Positions 1,998-59,886 of a DNA stretch of 64,000 bases are shown in pieces. The notes beneath the pieces are model-generated. The model saw nothing but the letters and a program-made list of their open reading frames with translations. It was not told the origin of the DNA and ran no database searches. Origin of the DNA: a virus (Duplodnaviria; Heunggongvirae; Uroviricota; Caudoviricetes). Every line of letters begins with the position of its first letter. The stretch's first letter is position 1. The stretch lies in IMG/VR virus record IMGVR_UViG_2541047715_000004; one strand, 5' to 3'. The position numbers were made by a program, and so were the translations under genes.

Positions 1998-2167
1998 TTG
2001 TAGGTAGTTATCTATCTGTGTATATTTAACATGCGTAATAAAACTCTGGAATGACTATTCGTTTTGGTGGCCTATGGCCACCATTTTTTTATCTGTCTGG
2101 TCTTGTTCTCTCAATGAATGTAAACTCACACGATGAATAAGTAATTACTTATATTTGTGAGGTTTTT

Positions 2168-3271
2168 GTGTCACTCCTTTTGAATCGAGAGCATACGAAC
2201 GGTCAGGTAACAAACGCATCGTATGCAAAAGTTATTGAGACGGTGCTTAAAAGCGGCGTGCAGGCTGATGATCGCACAGGCACTGGTACTTTAAGCACCT
2301 GCTACGTTCCCTCTTACTACATGCTTACTGGTGGGACTGTGCCGCTTATTTCTGGAAAGGCGGTAAATCTTAAGCCACTACTTGTCGAACTTGAGTGGTA
2401 TCTGAAAGGCACGGGCAACATCCAATTTCTCAAGGATAACGGCGTTAAGATTTGGGATGCATGGGCCGATGAGAATGGCGATTTGGGGCCGGTTTACGGT
2501 AAGCAGTGGCGTCGATGGGAAGATACCCGCATCGTGAGCCATAGTGAATATCTGAGCAAGATCGCTACTTTCCGTGAACGCGGGTACAAAGTCGAGGGAT
2601 ACCTGGGTATCAGTGAAGATCGCGTAGTGCTGTCCCGTGAAATCGATCAGCTACAGCGTATTGTCGATACACTGCGCACGAACCCTACCGATCGTCGCAT
2701 CATGCTTAACGCATGGAACGTAGGCGAGCTTGAGGATATGAAACTGCCACCTTGCCACTTTGTCTTCTCTTTGTGGAGTCGTGAGCTGGATTTTGAAACC
2801 CGTTTAACGATGGCAACTGACATTGGTCTTCAACACAGTCGCCTCGGTTACGAGTCTATCTACACCAAGATGCTATACGATCTGGAGATGGACGGCAGTG
2901 TTACTGAAGCTGAACTGGATGAACTTGGAATCCCCAAACGCATCCTCAACTCCTGCCTCGTACAGCGTAGCGTAGACACTTTTGTTGGTATGCCATTCAA
3001 TATTGCTGGCTATGGCATTCTCACTCATTTTCTCGCGAAGATTACGGGTCACATGGCCGGTGCATTTGTGCATTTTGGCTTTGACGTGCATTTGTACAAC
3101 AACCACATGGAAGGTGTGTGTGAGCTAATGAAACGACAGGCTCCAGAGCATTCAGATCCGGTCGTTATTTTCCCTCATGAATGGTCAGAGTTGGATGATT
3201 TCAAATGGGACGAGGTTTTAATTCTTGGCTATGACCCTCTACCGTGGATCAAGGTTCCAGTGGCGGTGTGA
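2168..3271 (+). CDS. thyA: thymidylate synthase with two in-frame insertions
   Basis: GTG start with upstream GAGG; motifs DRTGTGT, GDLGPVYGKQWR, catalytic PPCHFVF, GMPFNIAGY, GYDPLPWIKVPVAV; 367 aa versus about 264 aa for E. coli ThyA. Confidence 0.9.
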   Translation: MSLLLNREHTNGQVTNASYAKVIETVLKSGVQADDRTGTGTLSTCYVPSYYMLTGGTVPLISGKAVNLKPLLVELEWYLKGTGNIQFLKDNGVKIWDAWADENGDLGPVYGKQWRRWEDTRIVSHSEYLSKIATFRERGYKVEGYLGISEDRVVLSREIDQLQRIVDTLRTNPTDRRIMLNAWNVGELEDMKLPPCHFVFSLWSRELDFETRLTMATDIGLQHSRLGYESIYTKMLYDLEMDGSVTEAELDELGIPKRILNSCLVQRSVDTFVGMPFNIAGYGILTHFLAKITGHMAGAFVHFGFDVHLYNNHMEGVCELMKRQAPEHSDPVVIFPHEWSELDDFKWDEVLILGYDPLPWIKVPVAV

Positions 3272-3272
3272 T

Positions 3273-6821: not shown

Positions 6822-7004
6822 CGTCCCCCTACTGAAAATAAAGCCCATAGAGAGCTTTATAGTGCTGGGTAAGCCAATCACATATCCAGCACCACAAAAA
6901 CGCGCCAGAGAGCTTCTCGTTTGCATTTCTGGCGCGTTTTATTTGATTGCCAGACATAAAATCAAATGCAAAAATAGGTAATCACTTACCTATCGAGAAA
7001 GACG

Positions 7005-7598
7005 ATGATTGCAGCCGAAAAAATCAAACAGCGAAAGCGCGACAACTCTCTTCGTGACCTCTGGAGAACACCTGACTGGCTGTTTTCTGCCATTCAACGT
7101 TATCTTGGAGTGACATTTGATGTTGACGTTGCCTGCAACAAGGACAATGCGAAGCTGCCTAATTTCATAGGCGTTGAGCGTGATGCTTTGAAATCTGAAT
7201 GGGGACAGCCAGGTACAATTGCCTTCCTCAATCCACCCTACTCCAAAATCTCCCCCTGGATTGATGCGGCTATACGTGAGCAGGCTCGCGGAGTTACAAC
7301 AGTGATGCTAATTCCTCAATCCCTCGATACAAAGTGGTATGAGCGTGCAACAGAGTGTGCGAATGAGACGATTATTCTGTCTGGTGGCCGCGTAGCGTTT
7401 GTCGAGCCTGACGTCAATTTGGGTCAGGTAGAAGTAAACATCAACCCCGGTGGCAGTATGCTCGTTGTTTTTCGAGGATTCTGTCAGGACGCTGGGCACT
7501 CTATAAGCAAGATCCCTTTGGACGTCATGAAAAGTCTGGGAGGGTATGATCCTGCGAATGTGATCAGGAAAAAAAGACAATCAAAGAAGGCTGCTTAG
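7005..7598 (+). CDS. dam: phage-type DNA N6-adenine methyltransferase
   Basis: FLNPPYS motif IV; ~200-aa size typical of small phage Dam enzymes. Confidence 0.7.
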   Translation: MIAAEKIKQRKRDNSLRDLWRTPDWLFSAIQRYLGVTFDVDVACNKDNAKLPNFIGVERDALKSEWGQPGTIAFLNPPYSKISPWIDAAIREQARGVTTVMLIPQSLDTKWYERATECANETIILSGGRVAFVEPDVNLGQVEVNINPGGSMLVVFRGFCQDAGHSISKIPLDVMKSLGGYDPANVIRKKRQSKKAA

Positions 7599-7619: not shown

Positions 7620-7685
7620 AGCCTGCTTCTGTATATATAAATAACTACATATTAATTATTAATATACGGAAGCAGGCTGTTTTAT
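7620..7685 (+). terminator. long hairpin (17-bp arms) followed by T-rich tract
   Basis: AGCCTGCTTCTGTATAT ... ATATACGGAAGCAGGCT then GTTTTAT; a second copy with the same arms is at 37341-37393. Confidence 0.5.
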
Positions 7686-8015: not shown

Positions 8016-8601
8016 TAGATAAGTACAAACTATTCATAAAGTGAATTGTAAGTGCTAAGATCTGATAGTTTCCAGTCGTAGACTGGAGGCTCGACCTGAT
8101 GGGTGGGGGTAAGCGTCACTGGCGTCAGGTTTAAAAAAGCTCACTACCAGCGTAGAACCGGCACCGTTTAGGGGTTGGGGAAGGGGGAACCAAAGTGAGC
8201 AGAGACAAGGGTCACTTTATGATTGTCGAGTCTGGGGTGTTTCGAGAGGTTGAATCCAGTACTCCCCTTCATAAAGTGTGGGAAGATCTCGGTTCTGGGG
8301 TGCTGTCATCCATAACTTCCCAAGCCTAAGCTGGCAGTAGACTTAGGTCATAACTTTTCAGGTTATGAAACGACCAGGTTGGTGAGGAAATTTTGTACTC
8401 ACCTCCCTGGGAGAGTATTACCTGAAAAGACAACCTCTCACTTCGTTCGAGGTGAACTTCACTCACTTCGTTCGTTCAGTTCAGGTTTATAAAAACCTGT
8501 TCTGGGAAGTAATTTGTTTATTTTAATAATTATTAACACGCACGCGTGTGCGCACGCGCGAGGAAAAAAAAATCGGCGCGGCGCTTGATTCAGGAGTTTA
8601 T

Positions 8602-9192
8602 ATGACGACGAAGACACCAGCCCGATCGCAAGCAAAAACTCGCAAAAATGACAAAAACAAAAATTCTCCCCGCACCAATTCCACAACGCCTGTCGTAGAG
8701 TTCAATCCCCAGCTTAAAACCGTGAAAATCTTCAGTGATGGCTCTTGCCTTAAAAATCCGGGTGGCCCGGGCGGTTACGGTATAGTTCTCCAGTATGGTG
8801 GTGAGGAACGCGAGTTCTCAGATGGTTTTCATAGCACCACCAATAACCGCATGGAGATGATGGGGGCACTTATCGGGCTGGAGCGTTTGAAATATCCATG
8901 CAACGTTATTTTGTACTCTGATAGCCAGTATCTGAAAAACGGCATGACACAGTGGATGAAATGGTGGAAACGCAATGGATGGATGACTTCTGACAAAAAA
9001 CCGGTAAAGAATGTTGATCTGTGGAAGCGTCTGGATGAGGCCGCAAGTCGACATAATGTTCGCTGGAAGTGGGTTAAAGGTCACGCCGGGCATCGTGAAA
9101 ATGAAATATGTGATCGACTCGCGAAGATCGCAGCTTTTTCAGCAGCAGATATGCCTCACAAGAAAGATATTGGTTTTGTTTATAACAAGTAG
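8602..9192 (+). CDS. rnhA: ribonuclease HI with basic N-terminal extension
   Basis: [21 protein letters not shown], catalytic core and [11 protein letters not shown]; AGGAG RBS before ATG 8602. Confidence 0.85.
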
Positions 9193-9340
9193 TAAGTAAG
9201 TGTTTACCTATCATTTTAAATCATGTATCTTATCAGCGTCAGGATGACAATGTGTCGGTAAGACACAGTTCCAGGATGGAACGAGAAAGGCGGCTGGCGA
9301 TCGCCAGCCGCAACTCTTTCTGACACTGGATGGAGTCCAC

Positions 9341-13010: not shown

Positions 13011-16000
13011 CTATATCTGCCCACCTACTCCTTTGAACTTTTCAATAAACGTGACGATTTTCTGGAAAACGGTCTGTTTTTTCGTTTTATATTGCGGGTT
13101 TAACGGACTAAGTTTTGGTAATGTCTCGTTTAATTCTGTGCCATTTTCGGTGGCGTATTCGCGTTTTAAAGACGTGCGAATATAGCGTTTCGCCGCCTCT
13201 TCATTGAGATTTTCTTCTTTTATCAATGCTTCTGCTTCACGTTGCTGTTCGCGTTGAGCAAACGTAAAGAATGCCTCAATGATACTGGCTTTGTCTGGTA
13301 AATCATCCAGGTTCGTTTGCTGAATAAAATCGACCACCAGGCCCTCTTTCGCCCGGTTCCCCAGGCTTGAACGAATTAAGCGTTTGACCTCTTCGATCAT
13401 TTCGCCCTTGCCTTTATTTTGTCTGTTGTGTTCGAAAATCAGTCCAAGGATATAATCCAGGTTTATTTCCTGAGACTTCAGCAAATCGACCTCAAAAACT
13501 ACGTCATCCCAGTCAGTGGTTGATTTCTCTTTTTTCTCAGCTTCTTTCTCACGGCGCTGCCAGTCGCGAATATCGTTATAGGCAGAACGATAATCCTGAA
13601 TCTTGCGTTCAGCAGGGAGACGAATTGTTTGCAATTCAGCGAACTTTTCATCATCCACATAATGTTCTGCTTTGAATTTTTCTACCGCAACAGGATCGCT
13701 AAGATCGATTTGTTGCAGGGCTTTCAGCGTGGCAAATTCATCATAGTTTTGCAGGATGTTCTCGGCACGCAGGTATTCACCAAACAGTTTTACGAAGTCT
13801 TTCTTCTCTTTTTCACTTTCAATACTGGCAGGGTCAGGGAACCGTTGTTCCAGTTCTGAAACTACTGCCATAAAGCCGCGTTTAGCTTCACCAGTGGCAG
13901 CATCTGTAAAGCCTTCCATATACTCAGCATAACTCTTTTCTAACACCACATTTTTAGTATTTTTATCACCAAACAGCGTTATGGCATCAATGGTTGAGCG
14001 TTCCAGATCCCGAAAAGTGACGATGTTACCGAAGGTTTTAGTAGCGTCATAAATGCGGTTGGTACGGGAGAATGCCTGCATCAGGCCGTGAAAACGCAAG
14101 TTTTTATCGACGAATAGCGTGTTCAATGTTGGAGCGTCGAAGCCGGTTAAAAACATCCCAACGACAATTAACAGATCGATATCCTGATTTTTAACCCGTT
14201 GGGCTAAATCACGATAGTAGTTCTGAAAACCGTTACTGTCGGTGCTGAAGTTAGTTTTAAAATAGCTGTTATACTCACGAATTGCAGCGTCAAGAAACTC
14301 TTTAGCACTGCTGTCCATTGCGCTGGTATCAAAAGTTTCATCGGAAATTTCACCAATGGCATTTTGTTCTTCATTGGCGGCAAAGGAGAAGATTGTTGCA
14401 ACACGCAGCGGTTTATAGGTAGCCGATTTATTAGCTGCTTCCTCTTGTAACCGTTTAAACGTCGCGTAATAGGCTTTCGCGGCATCCACGCTACTCACTG
14501 CCAGCATGGCATTAAAGCCTTTGGAACCTGGGAAAGTACGGTGGGTCTTCTGGCGGAAGTTATTCAGAATATATTGCGTAATTTCCTGTATACGCATGGG
14601 ATGAAGAAATGCCTGCTGATTTTCAGCCGCACTCAGTTTTTTCTCGTCGGTTTCTGTCTCTAAAGATTTAAACTGTGGCCGCACATCGTTGTAGTCCACC
14701 TTGAATTTGAGCACTTTTTCATCACGAATCGCATCGGTAATTACATACGAATGCAATTCACGACCAAATACGCTGGCGGTCGTTTCTGAGCCTAAGGCGT
14801 TTTCCGGGAAAATAGGTGTGCCGGTAAAACCAAACTGATAATAGCGTTTGAATTTCTTCTTCAGGTTTTTCTGCGCTTCTCCAAACTGGCTGCGGTGACA
14901 TTCATCAAATATAAACACCACTTGCTGATTGTATACAGGCAGGTCGCTTTCTGCTTTCATCAGGTTATTAAGTTTCTGAATAGTGGTGACGATAATTTTG
15001 TTATCGTCCTTATCCAGATTGCGTTTAAGACCTGCGGTATTTTCCGAGCCGTTGACGCTGTCTGGCGAAAAACGCTTATATTCATTCATGGTCTGGTAAT
15101 CGAGGTCTTTCCTGTCGACCACGAAGAAGACTTTATCAATAAAGTCCAGCTCTGTTGCCAGACGCGCGGCTTTAAAGCTGGTGAGGGTTTTACCTGAACC
15201 GGTAGTGTGCCAGATATACCCACCGCTTTCCGGTTTTGACCAGTTCTTCGCTGTAAAGGAACTCTTAATTTTCCACAGAATGCGCTCAGTGGCGGCAATC
15301 TGGTACGGTCGCATCACCAGTAGCGTTTGGCTAACATCGAATACGCTGTAGTTCACTAAGACATTAAGCAGGGTATGTTTCTGGAAAAAGGTGGCGGTAA
15401 AGTCTTTGAGGTCTTTAATCAGCGTGTTGTCTGATTTCGCCCAATTCATGGTGAAGTCAAAACTGTTTTTATCGCGCTTTGTCGTGTTGGCAAAGTAACG
15501 GGTATCGGTGCCGTTGGAAATGACAAACAGTTGCAGATACTTAAACAGAGAATTTTCGCTGTTAAAACTCTCTTTGCTGTAACGATGTATCTGGTTAAAG
15601 GCCTCACGAATCGCCACGCCGCGCTTTTTCAGTTCGATTTGTACCAGCGGTAAGCCATTAACCAGGATCGTGACGTCATAACGGTTAGCATGAGAACCCG
15701 TCTGTTCAAACTGCTGGATAATCTGCACCTTGTTGCGCATGAGATTCTTTTTATCTATCAAATAGATGTTCTCAAGACGCTCGTCATCAAAAATAAAGTC
15801 GCAAATATAGTCGATATGGATTTTACGGGTCTTATCCAGGATGCCATCGCTCGGGTTATCCAGATACTGCTCCGTGAAACGCCGCCATTCGCTGTCATTA
15901 AACACCACACCATTGAGGTTCTGAAGCTGTTCCCGAACGTTGGCCAGCATCGCCGACTGAGATTTTACGGAAATAAATTCATAGCCCTGATTCCGCAGAT

Positions 16001-16127
16001 CCTGAATCAGTTCACGTTCCAGGTCCGATTCGCTCTGGTAGCTGTCGCCTGTTTGCTCGGCTTTGATGTACTTATCAAGAACGATAAAGTTATTGGATTC
16101 AGCAATGGTGTGTGTCTGATGAGTCAT
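13011..16127 (-). CDS. hsdR: type I restriction enzyme R subunit, type IC (EcoR124-like)
   Basis: 1038 aa; Walker [13 protein letters not shown]-box FDECHRS, helicase motifs; N-terminus [20 protein letters not shown] matches my recollection of EcoR124 HsdR. Confidence 0.95.
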
Positions 16128-16248
16128 AGCGCATCCTTTGTGCCGTCTGGCAAGGGCCGGAAGGGCTTTAAGGGCGACTTCCGGCGTGTAAAAAATAGTC
16201 TCTATATAGACCGGATGTTAAGGTGATCCGGTCGGTAGCAATGGTCAA

Positions 16249-42870: not shown

Positions 42871-42882
42871 TAGGAGCAAGAA

Positions 42883-43803: not shown

Positions 43804-43847
43804 CCGATATTGGGCGGCTTTCGCCGCCAAAGTGGAGAGAAAGCGTT

Positions 43848-45115: not shown

Positions 45116-45194
45116 CGCCAGTCGCATTATTTACTTTTGGTCTAAAGGGTTTTTGGCCAGTAATGAGAGCGACCGACAACAACAGGGAGAGAGC

Positions 45195-45539: not shown

Positions 45540-46003
45540 AATACGATGCGCATCAGTTCAAACGTGCGGGGAATAGACTCAACAACAGCCAGAAAGCATT
45601 TAAGCGATATCTTATTCGGGACATGGAAAAGCTGGCGCGTTTGGTTGAGCGCCTCAGCCGTGCAATGGCCCCGCTGGAAACCGGATCTCTGGAGACAGCT
45701 ATCTTTGCCAGGGTGATTAAAGAAGGTTATTCAGGGCTGCGCATTGAGCTTTCTGTGTCTGGAGCAAAACCACGTCAGGGGCATCCGGGTGTAGAAGTAG
45801 GTGACTATGCTAAGTACATGGAGCTGGGTAAATACCGACTCGGTTATCTTTCTCGAATGAAGAACGTGACAAACCCACCAATTGCCGGTGTTAAACCCCG
45901 TGTTGGGCCACACTTTCTGGAAAGAGCGGTGGAAATTAGCGAGAAGCAGTTCTCAGAAGCGATTCTTGAGGCTGCCAGAAAAGCCGGATTTACGAGAGGT
46001 TAA
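45530..46003 (+). CDS. hypothetical head-tail joining / tail completion protein
   Basis: Overlaps upstream stop. Confidence 0.4.
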   Translation: MGLKYDAHQFKRAGNRLNNSQKAFKRYLIRDMEKLARLVERLSRAMAPLETGSLETAIFARVIKEGYSGLRIELSVSGAKPRQGHPGVEVGDYAKYMELGKYRLGYLSRMKNVTNPPIAGVKPRVGPHFLERAVEISEKQFSEAILEAARKAGFTRG

Positions 46004-46004
46004 T

Positions 46005-46388
46005 GTGTTTATTGAAGCGTTTGCAAGTTTGATGCAGAAGGCAAAGATTGGCACGGTCGGGACTGACATTTTCTGTCACTACTTGCCTGCCAATGTGAAA
46101 TCTGGCGTCCTGCTTATTAATCCAAATACCGGCATCAGCATCGATCATGAGCTACAGGGCTTTTATCACGAATCATTCACAATCATTGTGCGTGGTTCGT
46201 CAATTACTACGACGGTTGAGAAAGCCAATAAAATCATTGAGATGTTTCCAGTAGAGGAAACGGAATCTGGTGGTGTGTATTTTCGACTTGTACGACCGAT
46301 GGCGATGCCAATCATTTATCCCAAAAATGATGGGGCATTAATAGAAGCAGGCATTCCTGTTGAATTTGCTGGCTATTTATTGAATTAA
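46005..46388 (+). CDS. hypothetical tail completion protein
   Basis: GTG 46005 after GAGAGG RBS (ATG 46032 is alternative). Confidence 0.35.
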   Translation: MFIEAFASLMQKAKIGTVGTDIFCHYLPANVKSGVLLINPNTGISIDHELQGFYHESFTIIVRGSSITTTVEKANKIIEMFPVEETESGGVYFRLVRPMAMPIIYPKNDGALIEAGIPVEFAGYLLN

Positions 46389-46462
46389 CTCAATTGGTAA
46401 GTATATACTTACTATTAGCGCAATGAATGCGTAGAATTAACGGAAAAAGGAGTTTTCCATCA

Positions 46463-47209
46463 ATGTCTAATACCCATGTAAAAAACATCAAACTTGGTGC
46501 CTGTAAGGTGTCGTTTGGTGGTGTGGATTTGGGTTACACCAAAGGTGGTGTTCAGGTTGAAATCGCAACCGAAACGCTGAAAGTGACCGTAGACCAGCTG
46601 GGCCAGACCACGATCTCCGAGCTGATCCAGGGCCGCAACATCACCATTACTGCGCCGCTGGCTGAATCCGTGTTGAAAAACATGGTCGATCTGATGCCAG
46701 GTTCCACGCTGAGTTCTGGCGAAGATACCGTAACCATCACGTCTGCGCAGGGAGTGAACCTGATCGACGTTGCGAAAGAGTTGGTGCTGACCCCGCAGGA
46801 TGCGACGGATTATGTTCTGACCATCCCTAAAGCAGCAACCGCGGGTAACTTCACCATGACCTACCAGTCTGACGACGTTCGCGTGTTCTCAGTTGAGTTT
46901 TCCGCTTACCCGGACGACGCTGGCGTGTTGGGGAAAATGAGCCTCCCAAAGCCGGTTGAGAGCGTCACGCTGACCCCGTCTTCACCGACCGTAAAAGTGG
47001 GCACTAAAGTTCAATTGAGCGCAACCTTCACCCCGGCCGATGCAACCAATAAGACTGGCGTGTGGAGCTCTGATGCGACTGATAAAGCGACCGTAGATCA
47101 GAACGGACTGGTAACTGGTAAAGCTGTCGGTTCAGCCAATATCACCTTCACAACTAATGACGGTGCCAAGAAGGCGACCAAAGCCGTCTCTGTAACTGCC
47201 GCAAGCTAA
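46463..47209 (+). CDS. major tail tube protein with C-terminal Ig-like domain
   Basis: AAGGAG RBS; C-terminal Big_2-like VTLTPSSPTVKVGTKVQLSATFTPADATNK...; position before G/GT and tape measure. Confidence 0.7.
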   Translation: MSNTHVKNIKLGACKVSFGGVDLGYTKGGVQVEIATETLKVTVDQLGQTTISELIQGRNITITAPLAESVLKNMVDLMPGSTLSSGEDTVTITSAQGVNLIDVAKELVLTPQDATDYVLTIPKAATAGNFTMTYQSDDVRVFSVEFSAYPDDAGVLGKMSLPKPVESVTLTPSSPTVKVGTKVQLSATFTPADATNKTGVWSSDATDKATVDQNGLVTGKAVGSANITFTTNDGAKKATKAVSVTAAS

Positions 47210-47270
47210 ATTGTGATAACCCAAGAGGCCCATGGATGGGCCTCTGTATGAGTTTAAAAGGATTTAAACC

Positions 47271-47588
47271 ATGACCAAATTACTCGATCTCGACTCCATT
47301 CTGCCGCCGAAAAAAAGCATCAAATTTGGTGGCAAAGAATATCCCATCGTTGAAATGACCGTCGGCCTCTTTGTTTCCATCAAGCAGATGGAAGGCAAAG
47401 ATCTCATGAACATGTCTCCTGTTGAGCAAGTGACAGCTTATGCAGATCTGGTTCGTAAGGTTATCCCTTCAGTACCTGACGAAGTTCTTGAAAAACTGAC
47501 TGTTCCGCAACTCCAGCAGATCTTCACCTTCGCTATGGAAGTGATTGATGAAGAAAACGAAAAAGCGGCTGGCGAAGGGGCAAAGTAA
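47271..47588 (+). CDS. tail assembly chaperone (gpG-like)
   Basis: 105-aa acidic protein immediately upstream of tape measure, with overlapping -1 frame ORF. Confidence 0.6.
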   Translation: MTKLLDLDSILPPKKSIKFGGKEYPIVEMTVGLFVSIKQMEGKDLMNMSPVEQVTAYADLVRKVIPSVPDEVLEKLTVPQLQQIFTFAMEVIDEENEKAAGEGAK

Positions 47589-47938
47589 TTTCCCGCGATG
47601 AATCCGGGACAAGGACCGTCTCAATAGATCTCGGATTCTATTTCAGTCGTGTAGTTGCTCACTACGCCGTGTCGCCATTAGAGCTACTGAACGTTCCTCT
47701 CACGATGTTCTGGATGCTCAGTCGCAATATAGACCGTCTGCGTGCGGAAGAGGATGTCCGCAACTTACAAGTCGCTCGTGCGTCCCAGGCGGATGGCGAG
47801 GCTGTGAAGGCGTTCATGGAGGGTTTGCAACTCAGGATTGGAAGACCAGTCGTAACAGATAAAGTCTACGATCCAAGCCAGGATAAGGCAGACCCTGACG
47901 CCAAAGAGCAACTGATGCAAATATTTGGCAGAGGATGA
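47552..47938 (+). CDS. -1 frame extension (gpT-like part of putative G-T frameshift product)
   Basis: -1 frame open from 47552 to 47938, overlaps last 12 codons of G and start of tape measure; A-rich GAAAAAG at 47559-47565. Confidence 0.45.
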   Translation, partial: RKRKSGWRRGKVISRDESGTRTVSIDLGFYFSRVVAHYAVSPLELLNVPLTMFWMLSRNIDRLRAEEDVRNLQVARASQADGEAVKAFMEGLQLRIGRPVVTDKVYDPSQDKADPDAKEQLMQIFGRG

Positions 47939-50900
47939 CAAGGGAATGTCACAAAACGTAGAGTTTATCCTGTCGCTGGAAGACAAACAGTTTACAGCGT
48001 CAATCGATCGTGCGGGGAAACTGCTTACTCGATTTGGTGAGCAGGTAACAAAGCCTGCTCAAAAAATCCAAACCTTTGAACGCTCTTTGGGTTCGGTCGC
48101 CCGTATCATTGGCGTTCTGGAAAGCAAGCTCGATTCTACGGCAGATAAACTACAGGATGTAGCTGCCGGTTTTGAGCTTGCTTCAGATGCTACGCGTAAA
48201 ATGCGTGGCAACATCACCAGCCTCAATTCTGGTCTTAAAGCCCTGATTGAGCGCGTCGATACGACAGCTTCTTCAGTAGATAAACTCACCGCGTCATTAC
48301 GTAAAGTGCAATCAGAGCTAAATGATTTCTCTGATTGGGCGACCTATGCAAGCAAAAGCGCAAGCCGCTTTGGTACGGAGGTCAAAGAAGCCTCTGCGTC
48401 CGTGAGTGGCATGAATACGCGCCTTAATACCACGACGAAGCGACTCAGTAATTGGGGTGTCACAACGAGTCAGGCTGCCGAGGGACTGAAAAAGGTTCGT
48501 GAGCAGATGGACGAAGTTATCGGACGTCAGCAACTGATTAGCAAGCCGGTACGCGTTCGTACATCTGGAAGTGGCGATGGTGGTAGCGGGCGGCGTAGCG
48601 GCGCTTCTGGCCATAGCGGTAAAAGTAACGAAGGAGGTATGTTCTCTGGCCTTCGTGGCAACATTTTCCTGCTTGGCGAGATCGGAGATGCAGCCAGAAC
48701 GGTTACTGACATCATGTTTGGGTGGCAGAAGCCTATTGTTGAAGCTGCGGCCGAAATGGAACGTATGCGGGTGATGCTTCGAGGGTTGAATAAGGAGAAG
48801 TCCAACCCGGGCCAGGCTGCCGCTGATGATATGAAGTACATCGTAGACATGGCGCAAAATGCGCCGTTCGCGATGCAGGCGTTAACAGATTCCTTCGTGA
48901 AGTTTCGTTCTGCTGGCTTAGATCCAACCGATGGTTCTCTGAAGGCGCTGGTGGACTCCGTTGCTCGTTTTGGTGGTGATAGTGAGCTGTTGAAACGTGC
49001 GGCTGTGGCCGTTCAGCAGATGTCCGGTAAGGGCGTTGTGTCAATGGAAGAGCTACGTCAGCAATTAGGTGAAGCCGTTCCTAACGCGATGCAGGCAATG
49101 GCAGACGCCGCAGGCATCACTATGGGGGAACTGACTAAAGCCGTTGCCAGCGGTACGGTTGAGGCAAAACAGGCGTTGTCTCTGATGTTTGTTGGTCTGC
49201 GTGCGGAGAATGAGAACGCAGCGAAAGACATGATGCAAACCTACACAGGTGCGCTGGCGCAACTTCAGACGTCATTCACGTTATTTGCTGATCGGGTTGG
49301 TCAGGCCGGATATCTGGATTCTCTATCGAAGGGGATGAAAGAACTGGCTTCAATCATGAATAGCGCCGAAGGGATTTCGTTTGCCAATTCTTTAGGCTCG
49401 GGGTTAACGACGGCAATCGATGGGTTGCGTCAGCTTGCTCAATGGTTAGCAAAGAACCAAGAGCTGGTAATTAATCTCGGTAAGGTCGTGGCCGCGATGG
49501 TTGCGTTCAAACTGATGCGAGCAGGGATCATGGGGGTAGTTGGCGCAGGCAGCCAGATGGTTAGCACCTTTGCCACGATGGCGACCGCCATACAGACTCC
49601 ATTTAACCTCGGCGCTACAGCAGTAACCCGATTCAATCGTGCGGCACGTATGGGGCTGGCTCCGATCCCCTCTCTTATTTTCGCCATCCGTGGGGCGATT
49701 ACGGGGCTTAAAGGCGCTTTTGCTGGATTAACGGCGTTCATTGCAGCAAACCCTATAGGGGCAGCATTTACAGTTGCCACTGTAGCTGTTGCTGGCCTAA
49801 TCACGTACATGACCATGCTCCGCAGCGAAACTTCAAAGGTCGTTGACGAGATTAGGAAAATACCAGAAGCGATGACAGCGGCCAAACGTGCACAAATGGC
49901 CGACCGCGCAGAAAAGCTCGAAAAGCAGATTCTTGCTGATCAACGAGCATTAAAAACTGGTGAGGGTGTTAATTACGTATCTAACTCTGCCGGTGTTATT
50001 ACTCACAAAGAGTCGAAGGCTGACATCGAAGCACGCCTGAAAAAAAATCAGGAAGAGTATCAAAAGATAACCGGCACGATAGCTCTTGGTGACGGCGCTG
50101 TAGCAAAGCGTTTGGCTAAAGAGGCTGCCGAATCTCAGATTGAGAAAATTCGAGCGGAAAACCAGATTTTTGCGGCAACATTCGTGAAAGCCCGGCAGGA
50201 GGCTCTGGACAAGATCCAGAAAATCAATGATGACGGTTCACTTTCAGATGACGAAAAGAACAAGCTATTGGCACCGTTACGTGAAACGGTAAACAAAAGC
50301 TATCTGGAGCCTGCGCAAAAACTGGTTGATTCACTTTCTTCTCGTAAGAATGCGACCGAGAAGCAAATTGCGACTCTTAATGATCAGCTTGAAAAAGCCA
50401 AAAAGGATGGAAATACCGAGCAAATCCAGAAACTGCAAGGCAGTATCCGTGGTTATCAGGAGCATTTGGAAGCCGTTGCTCAGGAGCTGACTCAGGCAGA
50501 GTTCGAGAGAGATAACGCGGCCAAAACTGGTAAGGGCGTAATGTCAAACCAGGGGACTGTTCTTGGGTTAGGTACAACTGATAAAGCTGCTCAGAAGGCG
50601 CTGGCGCAATATATGCGAAACCAGATGGATTCTGCGACTTATCAACGTACTTTGCCTGACGGCACTCCGATGATGGACTTCGAAGGTAAGCCGATTATTG
50701 GGCCTAAACAACTCAAGACGCAGCTTAATTTGCAGAAAGCATCCAGCGCCAGCTCTCTGGAGAAAATGAGCGATGAAGAGCGTGCCGCAGCCATTGCTGC
50801 ACTGACTAAAGCTCGTGAACAGGATGCAGCAGCTGCCGAGAAAGCAGCCCAACGATCAGCTAACGCCTCGCAGCGTGCGGCAAAGAAGGAACAGGCAGCG

Positions 50901-52517
50901 CAACAGAAACTGGCAGCCGGATACCAGAAGGCTCTGGACAAAGCTGATCAGCTTATGGGGCAAATGGGTGAAAGCTCTAAGGCTACGGTATCGTTTGATC
51001 AGTCTCTTCGCGATACAACGAAATCGCTGACAGATTTGGCTAATGCGGTTCCTAACGAGTTCATCACTCAAGAGATGATCGACAAGGCGAAAAAACGTCT
51101 TGAAGACCTAAAAAATGCGACACCTGAATATCGCGAGATGTTTAATCGCCGCAATGTTGAGCAGATGATCTCCACTTGGGCACCGGAATCAGATTCCATT
51201 ATCAGTGCTGGCTATACGCCGTCTCGTGAAGAGAAAGTTGCTGATTTCGAAGACACCTACAACCGCAATCTCAAAGCGTTGATAGAACTTCGTGATAAGG
51301 CGTCTGATCCTAAAGTTGTGGCGCTTTATACAAAGAAAATCAATCAACTGATTGCTGCTGGCAATACCGCGCTTATTAAAGAGACGGGGACTGCGACGCA
51401 GAAGTTGGCACTGGAATACGAAAACTTGGCAGAGCAGATCGAAAGCACCTGGACTGATTTGTTTAGTGGCTTAACTGATGTCCTGACTGATTTCGTTATT
51501 AACGGGAAGATGAGCTTCTCCAGCCTATCTCAGTCCATTTTGAAAGATATCACCAATATGGTCGTGAAGTCGCAAATCACGCTGCCTCTAATGAACATGT
51601 TGGGGATGGGAACCACCGCAGCTGGTAGTTCACAGAGTGGCAATTTGCTCACTGGAGTTGCTTCTGCCGTTGCCAATCAAGGTGTACGAATGGGCAACAC
51701 TGTTAATGGCGACAAGTCGGTAGGAGAAGCCACGAAGGAGACGTCCAGTTCGGTAACTGGATTGGGGCAAACAACACAGCAGACCACCAGCGCAATTGGC
51801 ACTGCAACAAATGCGATTGGTAGCTGGGTATCAGGGCTATTTGATAGCACTGAAGCCAAAGATGCCGAGACAAAAGCCGTGAAGGACTCCATCTTCTCGA
51901 TGCAGAACCTCAGCTCTGTTACCGGCGCTCTGTCTGCCGCGTTTGCAATGCTTGGAGCTAATGCTTCCGGCTATGGTAATAAGTGGTTGAATTTCGGCGC
52001 GACAGTTGCATCTGGTTTGGTTTCAGTATGGGCTGGTGGTGGATTCGATGGATTGATGTCCGGTTCTTCTGGCTCAACTTCCGGGTTCAACAATCTGACC
52101 AGTTCTGCTGCCGATGGCACGAATGGTATTCCTGCAATTCCGAAGTTTGCAAATGGTGGCATATTCGGAAAAGACGGCGTGATCCCGCTCCGGGCATACC
52201 AGAAAGGCGGTATCGCCAACTCACCTCAATTGGCGTTGTTTGGGGAAGGCGATATGAATGAGGCGTATGTTCCATTGCCTGATGGTCGAACAATCCCTGT
52301 AACGCTCAGTACCGATGGTATGAGTGGAGGAGGAAATGTTCTTTCTCCGGTATCAATTGAGATCAACGTCCATAGTGACGGTAGCACAACTGAATCCGGC
52401 GATACAGAAAGCATATGGAACAATGCCGCTCAACGGATGAAAGCAATCGCGCTTGAGACTATCGCTCAAGAGAAACGCCCTGGCGGATCACTCAACCCAA
52501 ACACTCAACGTAACTAA
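47925..52517 (+). CDS. tail tape measure protein
   Basis: 1530 aa, coiled-coil-rich, Gly-rich hydrophobic central segment. Confidence 0.85.
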   Translation: MAEDDKGMSQNVEFILSLEDKQFTASIDRAGKLLTRFGEQVTKPAQKIQTFERSLGSVARIIGVLESKLDSTADKLQDVAAGFELASDATRKMRGNITSLNSGLKALIERVDTTASSVDKLTASLRKVQSELNDFSDWATYASKSASRFGTEVKEASASVSGMNTRLNTTTKRLSNWGVTTSQAAEGLKKVREQMDEVIGRQQLISKPVRVRTSGSGDGGSGRRSGASGHSGKSNEGGMFSGLRGNIFLLGEIGDAARTVTDIMFGWQKPIVEAAAEMERMRVMLRGLNKEKSNPGQAAADDMKYIVDMAQNAPFAMQALTDSFVKFRSAGLDPTDGSLKALVDSVARFGGDSELLKRAAVAVQQMSGKGVVSMEELRQQLGEAVPNAMQAMADAAGITMGELTKAVASGTVEAKQALSLMFVGLRAENENAAKDMMQTYTGALAQLQTSFTLFADRVGQAGYLDSLSKGMKELASIMNSAEGISFANSLGSGLTTAIDGLRQLAQWLAKNQELVINLGKVVAAMVAFKLMRAGIMGVVGAGSQMVSTFATMATAIQTPFNLGATAVTRFNRAARMGLAPIPSLIFAIRGAITGLKGAFAGLTAFIAANPIGAAFTVATVAVAGLITYMTMLRSETSKVVDEIRKIPEAMTAAKRAQMADRAEKLEKQILADQRALKTGEGVNYVSNSAGVITHKESKADIEARLKKNQEEYQKITGTIALGDGAVAKRLAKEAAESQIEKIRAENQIFAATFVKARQEALDKIQKINDDGSLSDDEKNKLLAPLRETVNKSYLEPAQKLVDSLSSRKNATEKQIATLNDQLEKAKKDGNTEQIQKLQGSIRGYQEHLEAVAQELTQAEFERDNAAKTGKGVMSNQGTVLGLGTTDKAAQKALAQYMRNQMDSATYQRTLPDGTPMMDFEGKPIIGPKQLKTQLNLQKASSASSLEKMSDEERAAAIAALTKAREQDAAAAEKAAQRSANASQRAAKKEQAAQQKLAAGYQKALDKADQLMGQMGESSKATVSFDQSLRDTTKSLTDLANAVPNEFITQEMIDKAKKRLEDLKNATPEYREMFNRRNVEQMISTWAPESDSIISAGYTPSREEKVADFEDTYNRNLKALIELRDKASDPKVVALYTKKINQLIAAGNTALIKETGTATQKLALEYENLAEQIESTWTDLFSGLTDVLTDFVINGKMSFSSLSQSILKDITNMVVKSQITLPLMNMLGMGTTAAGSSQSGNLLTGVASAVANQGVRMGNTVNGDKSVGEATKETSSSVTGLGQTTQQTTSAIGTATNAIGSWVSGLFDSTEAKDAETKAVKDSIFSMQNLSSVTGALSAAFAMLGANASGYGNKWLNFGATVASGLVSVWAGGGFDGLMSGSSGSTSGFNNLTSSAADGTNGIPAIPKFANGGIFGKDGVIPLRAYQKGGIANSPQLALFGEGDMNEAYVPLPDGRTIPVTLSTDGMSGGGNVLSPVSIEINVHSDGSTTESGDTESIWNNAAQRMKAIALETIAQEKRPGGSLNPNTQRN

Positions 52518-52559
52518 CTATCGACTGCCCCGACCGGGGCAGTCTCACAAGGATGTGAG

Positions 52560-52895
52560 ATGGAAAGACAAACGTTTAATTGGTATCCAGATTACGAATC
52601 TGAAAAGAGCGTAAAACCGAATGTAACGGTACTTAATTTTGGTGATGACTACGAGCAGAGACAGGCTCAAGGTCTTAATCGTATTAAAGAAGAATGGTCG
52701 TTAACCTTTACCAGATCATACAACGAAATTAATGCAATCGATGACTTCCTGACTGAGCGAGCAGGCGTTGAGTCGTTCTATTGGGTTAATCCAAGAGGAA
52801 AACGGATTGTAGTTGTATGTGACAGTCATACGGTCAAGCGATATCAGGGGTACTGTGTCTTAACTGCTACATTCAGACAAGTATTTGAGGCTTAA
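52560..52895 (+). CDS. minor tail protein (lambda gpM-like)
   Basis: 111 aa after tape measure. Confidence 0.6.
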   Translation: MERQTFNWYPDYESEKSVKPNVTVLNFGDDYEQRQAQGLNRIKEEWSLTFTRSYNEINAIDDFLTERAGVESFYWVNPRGKRIVVVCDSHTVKRYQGYCVLTATFRQVFEA

Positions 52896-52977
52896 GTATC
52901 TGGATAAGTAAGTACTAATTTACTATCATTGTGGCGCTGACAGGATGTTAGCGCCTACTTATTTTAAGGATGAAACA

Positions 52978-53676
52978 ATGGGAATTAAAGCTGATATTCA
53001 GAGCTTATCTCCCTCTGCACTCATTGAGTTGTTCGTATTGGATATGTCGAACACAACTTCAGGGGGGAAGCTATTCTTCCACGCCGGAACAAACGAACTG
53101 ATGCAACCGGTCGTCTGGCAAGGAGTGACATACGAGCCGTGGCCAATCAAAGCATCAGGCTTTGACAAAACTGGCCAGGGAACGTTGCCACGTCCAAAAA
53201 TTCAGGTATCGAACTTTGCCGGAACCGTCTCTGCGGAAGTTCAGGCGAACGACGATCTTGTTGGCTGCCGCATTATTCGCAAGATGACGCTGGCTCGCTT
53301 CCTCGATGCCGTTAATTTTAAAGACGGCAACCCAACAGCAGATCCAAACCAACATTTCCCGGATGAAATGTGGTTTATCGAACAGAAAACTCTCGAAACT
53401 CATCAGGTTGTCGAGTTTGAATTGTCCAGTGTGTTCGATTTGATGGGGGTGCAACTGCCGTATCGTCAGATCATTAAAAACACCTGCCCGTGGAAATACC
53501 GAGGGCCAGAATGCGGCTATACCGGTCCATATTTCGACAAAAATAACCAGCAGACGTCTATGTCTGGTGCGGATTACTGCACAAAACGTTATGACGCCTG
53601 TAATGCGCGTCGGAATTATTTTGCCGACGGTGTGATCCATTTTGGCGGATTTATTGGAGCTACGCGGTATGGGTAA
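52978..53676 (+). CDS. minor tail protein (lambda gpL-like)
   Basis: 232 aa from ATG 52978; CPWKYRGPECGY matches gpL Cys motif. Confidence 0.7.
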   Translation: MGIKADIQSLSPSALIELFVLDMSNTTSGGKLFFHAGTNELMQPVVWQGVTYEPWPIKASGFDKTGQGTLPRPKIQVSNFAGTVSAEVQANDDLVGCRIIRKMTLARFLDAVNFKDGNPTADPNQHFPDEMWFIEQKTLETHQVVEFELSSVFDLMGVQLPYRQIIKNTCPWKYRGPECGYTGPYFDKNNQQTSMSGADYCTKRYDACNARRNYFADGVIHFGGFIGATRYG

Positions 53677-58000: not shown

Positions 58001-59793
58001 CGGCTCTTATTGCTAAGGAAAGCGAGGCTCGTGTTGAAGGCGATGCTGCAAACGCTAAACAACTGGAAGTGTTGCAGTCAACGGTAGAGGAAAGCTCCGC
58101 TGCCGTTGAAGAAATGAAAAAGACGGTTGCAGAGGTCGATCGTGCCAGTGCAGAACTGACTACGAACATTGAGGCGTTAGCCAAAACAAATATTGACCTG
58201 GCTCTTCGTCAAGATGAAGACCAGCACAAGCAGATGGTCAATAACGCGAAGATCGCAACAACACAGAAAACCTTTGCTGATGATATGTCTGCAATGGCCA
58301 CGAAGGTTGAGGAAATTCGCGTAGAAATTGGCGAAGACATTAAGGCCAGTATTCTGGAAGAGTCCACCGCGCGTGCCGATGGCGATGAAGCGTTGGCAAA
58401 GCGTGTCACTCAGCTGCAATCTAAGTTTGAAGGAGATATCAGCGCGGCGATTAGTACAGAGCAGGAGGCTCGTACATCTGCCGATGAAGCTCTGACGACA
58501 CAGATCACTCAGCTTGAGTCGAAAGTAAGCAACGATATCGTCGCAGCTATTAAGGAAGAGCAAGAAGCCCGAGCAACGGAAGATTCGGCTCTGGCAAGCC
58601 AGATCACCCAACTTCAGGCAAAGGTTGATGATGATATTTCTGCTGCAATACGTAGTGAGCAGGAGGCTCGAGCAAGCGGGGACTCTGCGTTAGCCAAACA
58701 AATAAACCAGCTTCAGTCAAAGGTTGACGGTGATATATCCGCTGCCATCACTCAGGAGCAGGAGGCCAGGGCAAGTGCTGACCAGGCGCTCTCACGAGAA
58801 ATTAACAGCCTGCGAGCACAAACCGGAACTGATATTGCCGCAGCGGTTGCTGTAGAGACAAAAGCAAGGACTGATGCCGATAGTGCATTGTCTACCCAGA
58901 TTACGTCTCTTACAGCAAAAGCTAATGATCTCGAGGCGTCTCTTGCCAGAGAAACAACGGCTCGTGCAGATGGTGATACCGCTTTAACAAAAGAGGTTTC
59001 AAGTTTAAAAGCACAGACAGCGAAAGATATTAGTGCGGCCGTTGCAGTTGAAACGCAGGCTCGAACTGATGCTGACTCGGCGTTGTCGTCTCAGATCACC
59101 AAGCTGACCTCTCAATACAAAGAGGATATTAAAGCGGCTGTAGCAACCGAAACGAAAACGCGTACAGAGCAAGATGCTGCATTGGCGACTCAAATCACAA
59201 ACTTAGAGTCTCAAACGGCAGCCAACATTTCCGCGGCGGTAACAACTGAAACGACAGCGAGAATGCAGGCAGATAATGCTCTGAGTGGGCGAATCGATAC
59301 TCTGAAAGCAGAGGTGGATGGAAATACCGCGACAATTCAACAGCAGGCAACAGCTATTGCTGATACCAACAAAAAAGTGTCAACCGCGTGGACGTTGAAA
59401 ATGGAAACTTCAACGAGCGGAGGGCAGAAGTATGTTGCTGGTATTGCGCTTGGTATCGACACCACTGGCCTTTCTCAGTTTTTGGTGCAGGCTGACAGGT
59501 TTGGTTTGGTCAACTCTGTTAACGGGAAGATCACAACGCCATTTGTTATCGAAAACAGTATCGCCTATATGAATGGAGCGTATATCAAGGATGGCACAAT
59601 CACCAATGCAAAAGTAGGCGATCTGCAATCTACCAATTTTGTTAGCGGTAGATCTGGATGGCGATTCGGCAAAAATGGAACGCTTGAGATCAACGGTAAT
59701 AGCGGCGGCAATGGGCGATTGGTTATAAATGGTCAGCGGATTGACGTTTATGACGATAACAACGTCTTACGAGTAAGAATTGGCCGTCTGTGA
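55066..59793 (+). CDS. central tail fiber / host specificity protein (lambda gpJ-like) with C-terminal coiled-coil repeats
   Basis: 1575 aa after K/I; about 10 tandem 33-aa repeats near C-terminus. Confidence 0.85.
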   Translation: MEQFKKKKLPLFIAGAGGKKSSKSSSRTPVEADDTVNSRAMAAILDLLGEGVIGGLVNGARSIFVDDLPIVNEDGSSNFSGITWDFRDGSQDQTPMSGFDFVETPKSVNIQLKKTHYVTVSIDNDEADRVRVIMKFPSLRSIDKKTGDTNGTTVEYKFQIANGDSTFVDVVAEGEKSVGIKLTAKKTGVYYRSYELKLPKPGRAYKVRVVRITDDNSSQYLYNDTWVDSIGEIVDTPMNYPNSVLVGLKVNSEQFGSTMPSRSYLVRGLKIRVPSNYNEASNTYDGVWDGTFKLLSSSNPAWILFDLLTNARYGLGQYVSESMIDLGQLYQIGRYCDEEVDDGFGGKEKRFAINTQITSRQDAYRLIQDIAGAFRGMVFWAGGMVNIMQDSPSDPVMMFTNSNVKDGLFTYKGSARKDRPSVALVTYNNKEDGYKQNIEYVEDQDAMRRYGERKTEVVAFGCTSRGQAHRVGLWLLYTARMESDVITFTAGLDASFLMPGETVLIQNKYRAGKRNSGRIVAFTKNSVTLDAPVSLAKGGCFIRILNHEGKIVERDVLETGENITKVTFSKSLSSAETPVLNGVWTITEPDLEPMRVRIVNIAQGETPGSFDITAVENNPSKYEAIDNGATLIPQNTTVLDPTYSKPSNLQITEGTYLSSPGNLSVKLTATWEGKSPEYWISWRRSDENNVSNWQSARVTEEQYEIVNVAENGRYDFQLYAVSFNGKKTEIISAVYQVLGTMTPPDSPTSLTAVGDYRNVILNWVNPDSVDLDHINVYASQTNNLDTAKLIAESASTTFTHAGLGDSETWYYWVRASNKRGMLSPPNSNLGTEATTRDVLSFLTGKITSSELGQALLEDINSKASQEAVDELNEHINQSVESLEGAVNDVKEDIAELDKQFSDNLADFEIKFNERSDALENAQTELKGEVSATIDKVNEAFEKIDATDAAIVEIENTVSEHDKALANTVEAIKAARDEAAALIAKESEARVEGDAANAKQLEVLQSTVEESSAAVEEMKKTVAEVDRASAELTTNIEALAKTNIDLALRQDEDQHKQMVNNAKIATTQKTFADDMSAMATKVEEIRVEIGEDIKASILEESTARADGDEALAKRVTQLQSKFEGDISAAISTEQEARTSADEALTTQITQLESKVSNDIVAAIKEEQEARATEDSALASQITQLQAKVDDDISAAIRSEQEARASGDSALAKQINQLQSKVDGDISAAITQEQEARASADQALSREINSLRAQTGTDIAAAVAVETKARTDADSALSTQITSLTAKANDLEASLARETTARADGDTALTKEVSSLKAQTAKDISAAVAVETQARTDADSALSSQITKLTSQYKEDIKAAVATETKTRTEQDAALATQITNLESQTAANISAAVTTETTARMQADNALSGRIDTLKAEVDGNTATIQQQATAIADTNKKVSTAWTLKMETSTSGGQKYVAGIALGIDTTGLSQFLVQADRFGLVNSVNGKITTPFVIENSIAYMNGAYIKDGTITNAKVGDLQSTNFVSGRSGWRFGKNGTLEINGNSGGNGRLVINGQRIDVYDDNNVLRVRIGRL

Positions 59794-59886
59794 TGGTGGA
59801 AAAAAATTTTTATATCGGTAAAAATAGGTGAGTATCTACTTAATGGCGGGCAAGGATAGCCCGCCAAATCAAGGAGCATATTCAAC

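Follow-up and report, generated by a model that had tools for sequence, protein, structure and literature searches.

What reads the short palindromes that recur in the gene spacers of an SSU5-type phage-plasmid, and whether they are read as DNA or as RNA, is the question raised by a 64,000-nucleotide (nt) stretch of tailed-phage DNA (IMG/VR record IMGVR_UViG_2541047715_000004, Caudoviricetes), the whole of which is called the window here. The window is an SSU5-like phage-plasmid, with an identity of 98% to Escherichia phage Cyrano, which is the pLF82 phage-plasmid, and of about 80% to Salmonella phage SSU5. An original prediction, made from the letters of the window, had listed eight intergenic palindromes of the form TAAGTA-N-TACTTA, also within the late operon, and had offered late promoters, RNA processing sites and binding sites for a phage factor as possible roles. 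The analysis reported here has identified the motif as a site in duplex DNA that a symmetric protein would read, and we propose, with moderate confidence, that the palindromes are dispersed operators on the lytic-gene promoters of this phage-plasmid. SSU5-type phage-plasmids are common in clinical Enterobacteriaceae, and one probe of 6 kilobases (kb) has matched 664 plasmid records. No mention of the motif has been found in the literature on SSU5, pHCM2 and Cyrano, and literature searches on SSU5-type phage-plasmids have yielded no operator, repressor or promoter map.

The window has been compared with five genomes, namely Cyrano, SSU5, Klebsiella phage pJN2-26, Enterobacter plasmid pCP102 and, as a control, phage P1, and with an additional sample of 80 loci of 21 kb each with the portal gene at the centre. 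Type i denotes the motif of the main clade, which comprises elements from E. coli, Salmonella, Klebsiella and E. hormaechei, and types ii-iv denote the variants found in sister clades.

The Motif and Its Sites in the Window

The refined consensus is a palindrome of 18-22 base pairs (bp), (R-A)-TARGTAAGT/ACTTAYCTA-(T-Y), with the slash marking its centre. Within each arm a 4-bp unit is repeated in tandem (TARG-TAAG), pointing to four reading heads, and the positions that flank the 12-bp inner part (T1, A2 and A-1) are constrained as well; the core TARGTA-N6-TACYTA is universal among the relatives. All eight listed palindromes have been recovered at their coordinates, and a genome-wide count of the motif, proposed with them as a check, has revealed a strong excess in the window and in the complete relatives. 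With at most one mismatch, TAAGTA-NN-TACTTA has 8 matches in the window where 0.12 are expected, and the core has 9 (0.2 expected); the complete relatives, of about 105 kb, hold 18-21 copies of the core each against 0.2-0.4 expected, and 71 of the 88 copies (some 80%) fall for the most part within the roughly 9% of the DNA that is non-coding. Phage P1 has 0 matches to the motif. The top over-represented intergenic 8-mer is the same in the window and in Cyrano, ATAAGTAA, and occurs in the latter at 13 intergenic positions versus 1 coding position. A position weight matrix trained on the sites of SSU5 and pJN2-26 only, with a threshold of at least 16 bits, has returned ten sites in the window (0 expected), including two overlooked before, at 9191-9212 and, in the 3' end of the portal gene, at 40901-40922. 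A palindrome in the loop of the hairpin at 37341-37393, formerly counted in the family, stays below this threshold and is not a member, and with 13.7 bits the sister hairpin near 7632 has a borderline sequence in its loop. The distribution of the motif is not limited to the late operon. The ten sites, with their matrix scores, are the following.

2132-2153: gaTGAATAAGTAATTACTTAta, 18.2 bits, 14 nt 5' of the thyX-like open reading frame (ORF) 2168-3271; orthologues at Cyrano 72596 and SSU5 72512 (shifted)
6973-6994: aaTAGGTAATCACTTACCTAtc, 28.6 bits, 10 nt 5' of the dam-like methyltransferase ORF 7005-7598; orthologues at Cyrano 77437, SSU5 77652, Klebsiella (Kpn) 14622 and, as type ii, pCP102 9847
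9191-9212: agTAAGTAAGTGTTTACCTAtc, 27.8 bits, abutting the stop of the RNase H-like ORF 8548-9192; orthologues at Cyrano 79652, SSU5 79905 and Klebsiella (Kpn) 16843
34105-34126: aaTAAGTAAGTGATTACTTAgt, 21.5 bits, where the UvsW-like helicase operon (- strand, start 34060) and the ParB-like operon (+ strand) diverge
39394-39415: gaTAGGTAAGTAATTATCTAag, 19.7 bits, filling the 26-nt spacer from the large terminase stop (TAG, 39396-39398) to the portal start at 39425
40901-40922: aaTAAGTCAGTACTTACTTAtg, 25.9 bits, within the 3' end of the portal gene
42817-42838: agTAGATAAGTAATTATCTAtg, 18.0 bits, after the stop of the major capsid gene (42809)
46392-46413: aaTTGGTAAGTATATACTTAct, 21.3 bits, between the stop of the tail-completion gene (46388) and the tail tube gene
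52903-52924: gaTAAGTAAGTACTAATTTAct, 23.8 bits, between the stop of the gpM-like gene (52895) and the gpL-like gene (52945); orthologues at Cyrano 15530, SSU5 15590 and Klebsiella (Kpn) 53622
59823-59844: aaTAGGTGAGTATCTACTTAat, 18.9 bits, between the stop of the gpJ-like gene (59793) and the tail fibre gene; orthologues at Cyrano 22449 (TAGGTAAGTATTTACTTA) and SSU5 21938

The arms of the 6973-6994 site form a perfect 7+7 palindrome.

Synteny and Clade-Specific Variants

Loss of the motif at syntenic positions in related genomes had been named in advance as the observation that would speak against a function; the comparison has been made, and the motif has turned out to be retained. The five sites covered by the 21-kb loci are found at the same positions in 60-78 loci, and the surrounding spacers diverge. 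The 39394 site is kept in 78 loci, in which the sequence between motif and ATG diverges, the 40901 site in 75, the 42817 site in 71, the 34105 site in 66 and the 46392 site in 60. The 34105 site is the copy retained across the widest clade range, including the distant clades L069, L079, L080 and L084. The other sites are likewise syntenic in the whole-genome lists of the complete relatives.

The inner sequence of the motif differs between clades. Type ii, TAGGTAGTT/AACTACCTA, is present in 21 copies against 0.2 expected (in pCP102, and also in loci with 81% portal identity), and more remote loci carry TAGGTATTT/AAATACCTA or TATGTA..TACATA at the same positions (types iii and iv); the spacer between terL and the portal gene, for instance, holds variants of types ii, iii and iv at the same place. 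From clade to clade both arms shift together genome-wide, and the outer hexamers stay constant. Enterobacter hormaechei elements are of type i and that of Enterobacter sp. CP102 is of type ii; since a single host genus thus harbours both, the motif type tracks the phage lineage and not the host genus. A change of inner sequence that runs clade-wise along the phage lineage favours a binder encoded by the phage, and most likely the specificity determinant is phage-encoded and would co-evolve with its roughly 20 sites.

A Site in Double-Stranded DNA

The variation among the sites themselves bears on whether the palindrome acts as duplex DNA or as a folded transcript. At the polymorphic pair (3,16) of the 46 type i sites, the combinations GC (12), AT (12), GT (9) and AC (10) have been counted, and the 24 Watson-Crick pairs compare with 21.5 expected if the arms were independent. 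Extended to 7 variable pairs in 63 sites, the count gives 200 in the Watson-Crick cells, against 203 +/- 8.5 in permutations, and on the sense strand 55 G.T stand against 64 A.C combinations, so that there is no G.U bias. The four central bases are self-complementary in the consensus, and this holds in two clades of different sequence (AGT/ACT and GTT/AAC). Because the arms vary independently and the centre is palindromic, the motif is a duplex DNA site read by a symmetric protein and not a hairpin. RNA processing sites, one of the three roles first suggested, are not borne out by this pattern, as compensatory arm pairing and a sense-strand G.U bias are missing and the centre is self-complementary; the evidence for a symmetric duplex-DNA site, joined with the inner sequence linked to phage lineage, instead favours the option of binding sites for a phage factor. 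The idea of a hairpin with a GNRA loop, based on the GTAA and GTGA centres and the GG/CC, AG/CT and GA/TC arm pairs of the first sites, has failed on the 63-site count.

Overlap with Promoter-Like Sequences and Choice of Genes

Most of the sites coincide with promoter-like sequences. Taking the 99.9th percentile of the genome as threshold, 65% of 60 sites overlap a sigma-70-like promoter, the proportion being 16% for 275 intergenic gaps that lack the motif and 3% for coding positions, and the promoter-like scores at motif sites differ from those of the motif-free gaps with p = 1.6e-14 (Mann-Whitney). The register is variable, with the -10 element placed from about -18 to +35 relative to the motif, and the motif variously fills the spacer between -35 and -10, provides the -35 or lies just downstream of the -10. 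The 40901 site sits exactly in the spacer of TTGAAA-N17-TATGAT (40896-40924, + strand), which an independent tool scan has ranked as the best sigma-70-like site (10/12) of the 19-kb late region 33900-53200; hexamers and motif are kept together in the related loci, and between the same hexamers the type ii loci have a motif variant of their own. The right arm of the 9191 site, TTTACC, is usable as a -35 for the -10 element TATCTT 17 nt downstream, and -10-like TATTAT/TAGAAT is found immediately 5' of the 34105 site. The 46392 site overlaps TTGAAT-18-TATACT (46380-46409), and the 52903 site overlaps TGGATA-17-TATCAT (52901-52929).

Sites precede the genes for portal, scaffold, Ig-like head protein, tail tube, gpL, fibre and holin, and also those for helicase/primase, ssb, sbcD, nrdA, thyX and dam; they are as frequent before early-type genes (thyX, dam, nrdA, ssb, helicase/primase) as before late ones. 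In the genomes compared, no motif has been found 5' of parA, repA, the toxin-antitoxin genes or the FljA-like gene. As the register varies, the motif is symmetric and early-type genes are included, these sites are better described as an operator placed on promoters than as a late-promoter element. Late promoters, as originally suggested, therefore describe the sites in part: the overlap of most of them with sigma-70-like promoters stands, and the restriction to late expression and the notion of a promoter element as such do not.

GC-rich hairpins have been noticed 5-10 nt after three of the late copies, at 42844-42860, 52933-52955 and about 59846-59866, the last being GGCGGGCaaggataGCCCGCC. 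With its T run, the hairpin at 42844-42860 behind the capsid gene resembles an intrinsic terminator. The remaining two have no good T run and could act as 5' stabilisers of transcripts that start at the motif-overlapping promoters.

The Proposed Dispersed Operators and Their Nearest Known Counterparts

In the proposed operator system, the sites would be read by a protein of two-fold symmetry, binding as one dimer or as two. Nearly all lytic-cycle transcription units would have such a site on their core promoters, and a few sites occupy gene spacers of very short length. The bound protein would occlude or block RNA polymerase, so that one regulator could silence the operons for DNA metabolism, replication, recombination, structure and lysis during plasmid maintenance, and the silenced units would be released together on induction. 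We infer repression as the sign of regulation; a variable register is what would be expected of repressor operators, as annotated for the C1 operators of phage P1.

These C1 operators, about twenty in number, are dispersed over a plasmid prophage of roughly 95 kb, each on a sigma-70 promoter of a lytic function and, like the motif here, at a variable place, which may be the -35/-10 spacer, the -35 itself or the stretch directly behind the -10 (P1 record). Many scattered copies over lytic promoters at variable register are thus common to both, and the control of many scattered units by one regulator resembles the role proposed here. However, the C1 operator is an asymmetric 17-bp site for a repressor that binds as a monomer, in contrast to the 18-22 bp palindrome of the SSU5 group, and the late operons of P1 are controlled indirectly via Lpa, whereas the motif is also present in structural and lysis operons. 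The two sites have no sequence similarity, and no C1 homologue is annotated in SSU5-type genomes. The stoperators of cluster A mycobacteriophages, recognized by gp71 of L5, offer a second parallel: twenty to thirty repressor sites are placed in short intergenic spacers all over the genome, including those between co-directional late genes, and consensus and specificity change together between related phages, much as the motif here is found in 26-nt gene spacers, within late operons and in clade-specific types. Stoperators are asymmetric 13-bp sites of fixed orientation to transcription that block elongation, unlike the present motif, which is symmetric, has no set orientation and lies mostly on promoter-like sequences. 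A third relative is the OB palindrome of the IncP plasmid RK2, which is repeated about a dozen times and serves a single global regulator, KorB, encoded beside its own site; OB is a 13-bp site, is often far from promoters and is bound by a ParB-family protein with a helix-turn-helix. Overall, the logic of the motif is closest to that of the P1 C1 operators and the stoperators, and differs from it in being palindromic and in having the sequence of a binding site for the host protein SlmA, a regulator of cell division.

Candidate Binders Encoded by the Phage

Regarding the protein that would occupy these operators, two products of the window deserve description.

37050-37316, + strand: winged-helix-like protein of 88 amino acids (aa), encoded at the very end of the ParB-like operon, whose start is at the 34105 site
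30928-31449, - strand: FljA-family protein, annotated in relatives as 'transcriptional regulator / repressor of phase-1 flagellin', matching PF03614 at full length (E = 1e-68)

The 88-aa protein has weak NCBIfam matches to helix-turn-helix regulators of the Lrs14/Sta1 kind, and its AF2 model consists of three helices and a beta wing, for which Foldseek has returned the winged-helix domains of LexA, MecI and DtxR with probabilities of 0.9-0.99, a root-mean-square deviation of 1.4-2.0 A and E of about 0.1. The segment of its putative recognition helix, TTKQSxQFSxRxLIKK, is nearly identical in all clades, with an extra A to I exchange in L084, a near-invariance that it has in common with the outer hexamers of the motif. 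On the ground of this modelled fold, the protein may be regarded as a candidate for the binder. The model of the FljA-family protein shows two tandem Hfq/Sm-like domains (a helix and five strands, twice), with a Foldseek TM of 0.7-0.85 to subunits of the Hfq hexamer; the copy of the Protein Data Bank (PDB) that was searched holds no structure of the family. FljA blocks the translation of fliC mRNA (PMC2652032), and an Hfq-like fold would fit this action on mRNA and not the binding of duplex DNA, so that the FljA-family protein is probably an RNA binder. As the reader of the motif it has been rejected, for its Hfq-like model, for the absence of the motif from its own promoter in Cyrano or Klebsiella, and for a divergence (66-69% within type i) that does not follow the motif type; it evolves faster than its neighbours. 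The XRE repressor beside the integrase has been discarded too, because its gene is absent from SSU5, which keeps 19 sites. Scans with Pfam and PHROGs have given no regulator match for ten other conserved unknown proteins.

Several observations weigh against operators for a phage-encoded repressor. No conserved phage protein with a clear repressor signature has been found; among the proteins shared by all genomes, the Hfq-like FljA-family protein alone is annotated as a 'transcriptional regulator', the 88-aa protein has no substitutions that track the motif type, and the two ParB-like proteins are acidic, match only the N-terminal domain of ParB and lack a recognisable helix-turn-helix. Moreover, the AT-rich motif itself adds to the promoter-like scores, and some sites, such as that in the 26-nt terL/portal spacer, have no convincing promoter. 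Finally, the type i consensus comes so close to the SlmA-binding site that a host binder has to be considered.

Host SlmA as a Possible Alternative Reader

Occupation of the sites by host SlmA is the main rival of a phage-encoded operator system. The SlmA-binding site (SBS) is a 12-bp palindrome, GTGAGTACTCAC, that requires G1, T2, A4 and G5 and tolerates either purine at position 3 (with A in place of G the dissociation constant stays near 60 nM) and either pyrimidine at position 6 (PMC3020112); a consensus 24-mer, AAGTAAGTGAGCGCTCACTTACGT, and the natural SBS17 are available for comparison (PMC4423959). Positions 4-15 of the type i consensus, GTAAGT/ACTTAC, satisfy all of these specificity rules. 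Among the 46 sites, A at position 7 and G at position 8 are each found in 34, and Y at position 9 and R at position 10 occur without exception (46/46). The agreement extends beyond the 12-mer to the longer consensus of roughly 20 bp, each arm of which has GTRAG pentamers in tandem, since TARG-TAAG-T/A-CTTA-CYTA differs from TAAG-TGAG-C/G-CTCA-CTTA by tolerated transitions only, and the motif, the consensus 24-mer and SBS17 share the architecture TAAG-TRAG-Y/R-CTYA-CTTA. Furthermore, GTRAGYRCTYAC with at most one mismatch has 14-18 matches per type i genome, where 2.0-2.7 are expected, six of them exact in Klebsiella phage pJN2-26; phage P1 has 1. Based on the fit to the SBS and the excess of near-matches, host SlmA is predicted to bind many type i sites. 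Literature searches have found nothing on SlmA binding to SSU5-type elements.

From predicted binding it is a further step to SlmA as the functional binder of the type i clade, with the roughly 20 sites acting as SBSs, a possibility that we consider doubtful though worth keeping in view. The bound SlmA could be a prophage silencer at the promoters that it overlaps; alternatively, plasmid or replicating phage DNA could strongly activate nucleoid occlusion, whereby septation would be delayed over unsegregated plasmid copies or division would be blocked during lytic replication. The tandem repeat in each arm suits the dimer-of-dimers in which SlmA binds, and reporter expression is repressed when its promoter contains an SBS (PMC5519180). 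The phages, for their part, encode no SlmA or TetR homologue that could be detected by tblastn. One objection comes from type ii, as its sites are equally enriched at orthologous positions and break the essential A4 and G5 on both arms, and the type ii genome has 3 SBS-like matches against 1.9 expected; SBS character is hence not kept at orthologous sites in hosts that contain SlmA. Types i and ii both occur in Enterobacter, and therefore divergence of host SlmA offers no explanation, the SlmA recognition helix being reported as conserved among gamma-proteobacteria (PMC3020112). No exact SBS occurs among the ten window sites; 8 of them have a perfect left half, and degeneracy is frequent in the right half (0-3 mismatches at key positions). 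Constraint on the flanks T1, A2 and A-1 lies outside the published 12-bp core. In E. coli, SBSs occur about once per 90-190 kb, mostly inside genes, with only 2 of 24 intergenic, and reportedly avoid promoter regions (PMC3020112, PMC5519180), whereas the elements studied here carry about 20 sites per 105 kb, nearly all of them intergenic and on promoters.

Outside the window, Cyrano (42607; L005 about 13026) and pJN2-26 (90503) each have a 12-mer, GGTAAGTGCTTACC or GGTAAGTACTTACC, that is exactly SBS-like and lacks the outer TAR/YTA arms. It is located in the divergent region 5' of the XRE-family repressor gene by the integrase, a gene pair absent from SSU5. Resemblances of the motif to other host-factor sites, namely NarL heptamers, the Arc operator and, for type ii, the core of the TrpR operator, have been judged coincidental.

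Activation, Partition and RNA-Level Readings

A site for positive control, either bound by a phage activator or forming part of a phage-specific promoter of middle and late units, is an unlikely reading of the motif. The sites do stand directly 5' of many genes and over promoter-like hexamers, several of which have a weak or absent -35, and their presence before structural and lysis genes would suit a late activator. Yet activators and promoter elements need a fixed register, and the best -10 lies at distances from the motif that differ by more than 50 nt between sites; several copies are flanked by a good -35 and -10 or cover the start site, so that a protein bound there would keep polymerase out. 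The two-fold symmetry of the motif and its lack of a consistent orientation are also hard to reconcile with activation: the weakly asymmetric centre does not keep its orientation in orthologues, as seen at the dam site, where it is inverted between the window (6975) and SSU5 (77652). Early-type and late genes are, in addition, preceded alike. A fixed sigma-70 layout, with the -35 at -7..-2 and the -10 at 17..22, has been tried and fits a subset only, and the flanks are A/T-rich and symmetric and not TTGACA.

Somewhat less probable still are centromere-like or DNA-organising sites for the two adjacent ParB-like proteins, serving partition, condensation or long-range silencing after the manner of the dispersed OB sites of RK2 or the dispersed sopC of N15. 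Palindromic dispersed sites are typical of ParB/KorB systems, the widely retained 34105 copy lies immediately 5' of the ParB-like operon, and ParB1 evolves faster than its neighbours in the clades with an altered motif (44-46% versus 68-80% identity). Against this stand the match of both proteins to the N-terminal ParB domain only and their lack of a recognisable helix-turn-helix, a separate ParA-type partition locus elsewhere in the genome, and the position of the sites on core promoters; the motif sites are also longer than known parS or OB sites.

An RNA-level hairpin for processing, stabilisation, termination or translational control, for example as the target of the FljA-like Hfq-fold protein, is very improbable: the sites do lie in short spacers just 5' of ribosome-binding sites, some with A-rich 5' and T-rich 3' flanks like weak bidirectional terminators, a FljA-family protein is encoded, and E. 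coli-clade sites frequently have GTAA or GTGA at the centre, as in a GNRA-type loop, but same-site arms have no excess of complementarity, both sense-strand mismatches are equally common, a loop needs no self-complementary centre, the stem sequence itself is kept beyond mere pairing, and several sites between -35 and -10 lie 5' of the likely transcription start. A reading of the palindromes as stops in all frames has been dismissed, since it leaves the invariant G4/T5, the flanks and the promoter overlap unexplained; the type ii consensus does contain stop codons in all six frames.

Other Elements in and near the Window

A second palindrome family, AAAACAA-N-TTGTTTT (15-16 bp), has been found at 10088, 10818, 23558, 23610, 26418, 26902, 27805, 28569, 37431 and 37456. 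It lies 15-30 nt 5' of small-ORF starts (10-12 kb and 23-29 kb) and twice 5' of the small terminase gene, marking a gene set other than that of the TARGTA motif, and could define a second regulon or an RNA-level operator by the ribosome-binding site. A hairpin of roughly 53 bp with an AT-rich centre, CCTGCTTCTGTATATA...TATATACGGAAGCAGG, is present in two copies, at 7622-7676 and 37341-37393, and a third copy is found near the parA region of the relatives (Cyrano about 31160, SSU5 about 33460). The copy at 37341-37393 coincides with the start point of the Cyrano and SSU5 records, base 1 of both corresponding to window 37377, and the hairpin could be a packaging, replication or terminator element.

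The minus strand at 13011-19055 encodes a complete type I restriction-modification system (hsdR, 1038 aa; hsdS, 415 aa; hsdM, 520 aa), an island absent at this position from Cyrano and SSU5. Between 20184 and 23475, a P-loop ATPase of the Mrp/NUBPL type (MinD-like in the Cyrano annotation) and a full-length methionyl-tRNA synthetase are arranged divergently. Outside the SSU5 group, 28 viral contigs without a blastn match to SSU5-type references carry palindromes of the form (TAAG)n-TAC-(TTAC)n, among them L095, L097, L104, L109, L129, L132, L140, L153, L161 and L164. These palindromes contain stop codons in several frames on both strands, and L104 has two copies 55 bp apart; they may represent a recurrent bidirectional stop or hairpin element of other phages.

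Implications for SSU5-Type Phage-Plasmids

The motif bears on two aspects of these elements, their relation to host division and their lysogeny. It is conceivable, albeit rather doubtful, that SSU5-type elements of the type i clade are loaded with about 20 high-affinity SlmA sites on their lytic promoters and have co-opted SlmA as a silencer or division checkpoint; about 20 sites is roughly as many as some counts give for the whole E. coli chromosome. In the latter case, the DNA of the element would itself be a cell-division checkpoint signal, preventing septation over unsegregated copies and blocking division once the phage genome amplifies. If SlmA were co-opted in either way, a mobile element would couple silencing, segregation or host division to nucleoid occlusion. 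Even with a phage protein as the true regulator, SlmA is predicted to compete at the sites.

The lysogeny control of SSU5-type phage-plasmids is essentially undescribed. An operator before almost every lytic unit would provide a handle on the switch, as bait for pull-down, as a target for reporters and as a marker of immunity, and its clade-specific variants predict immunity or incompatibility groups within the family.

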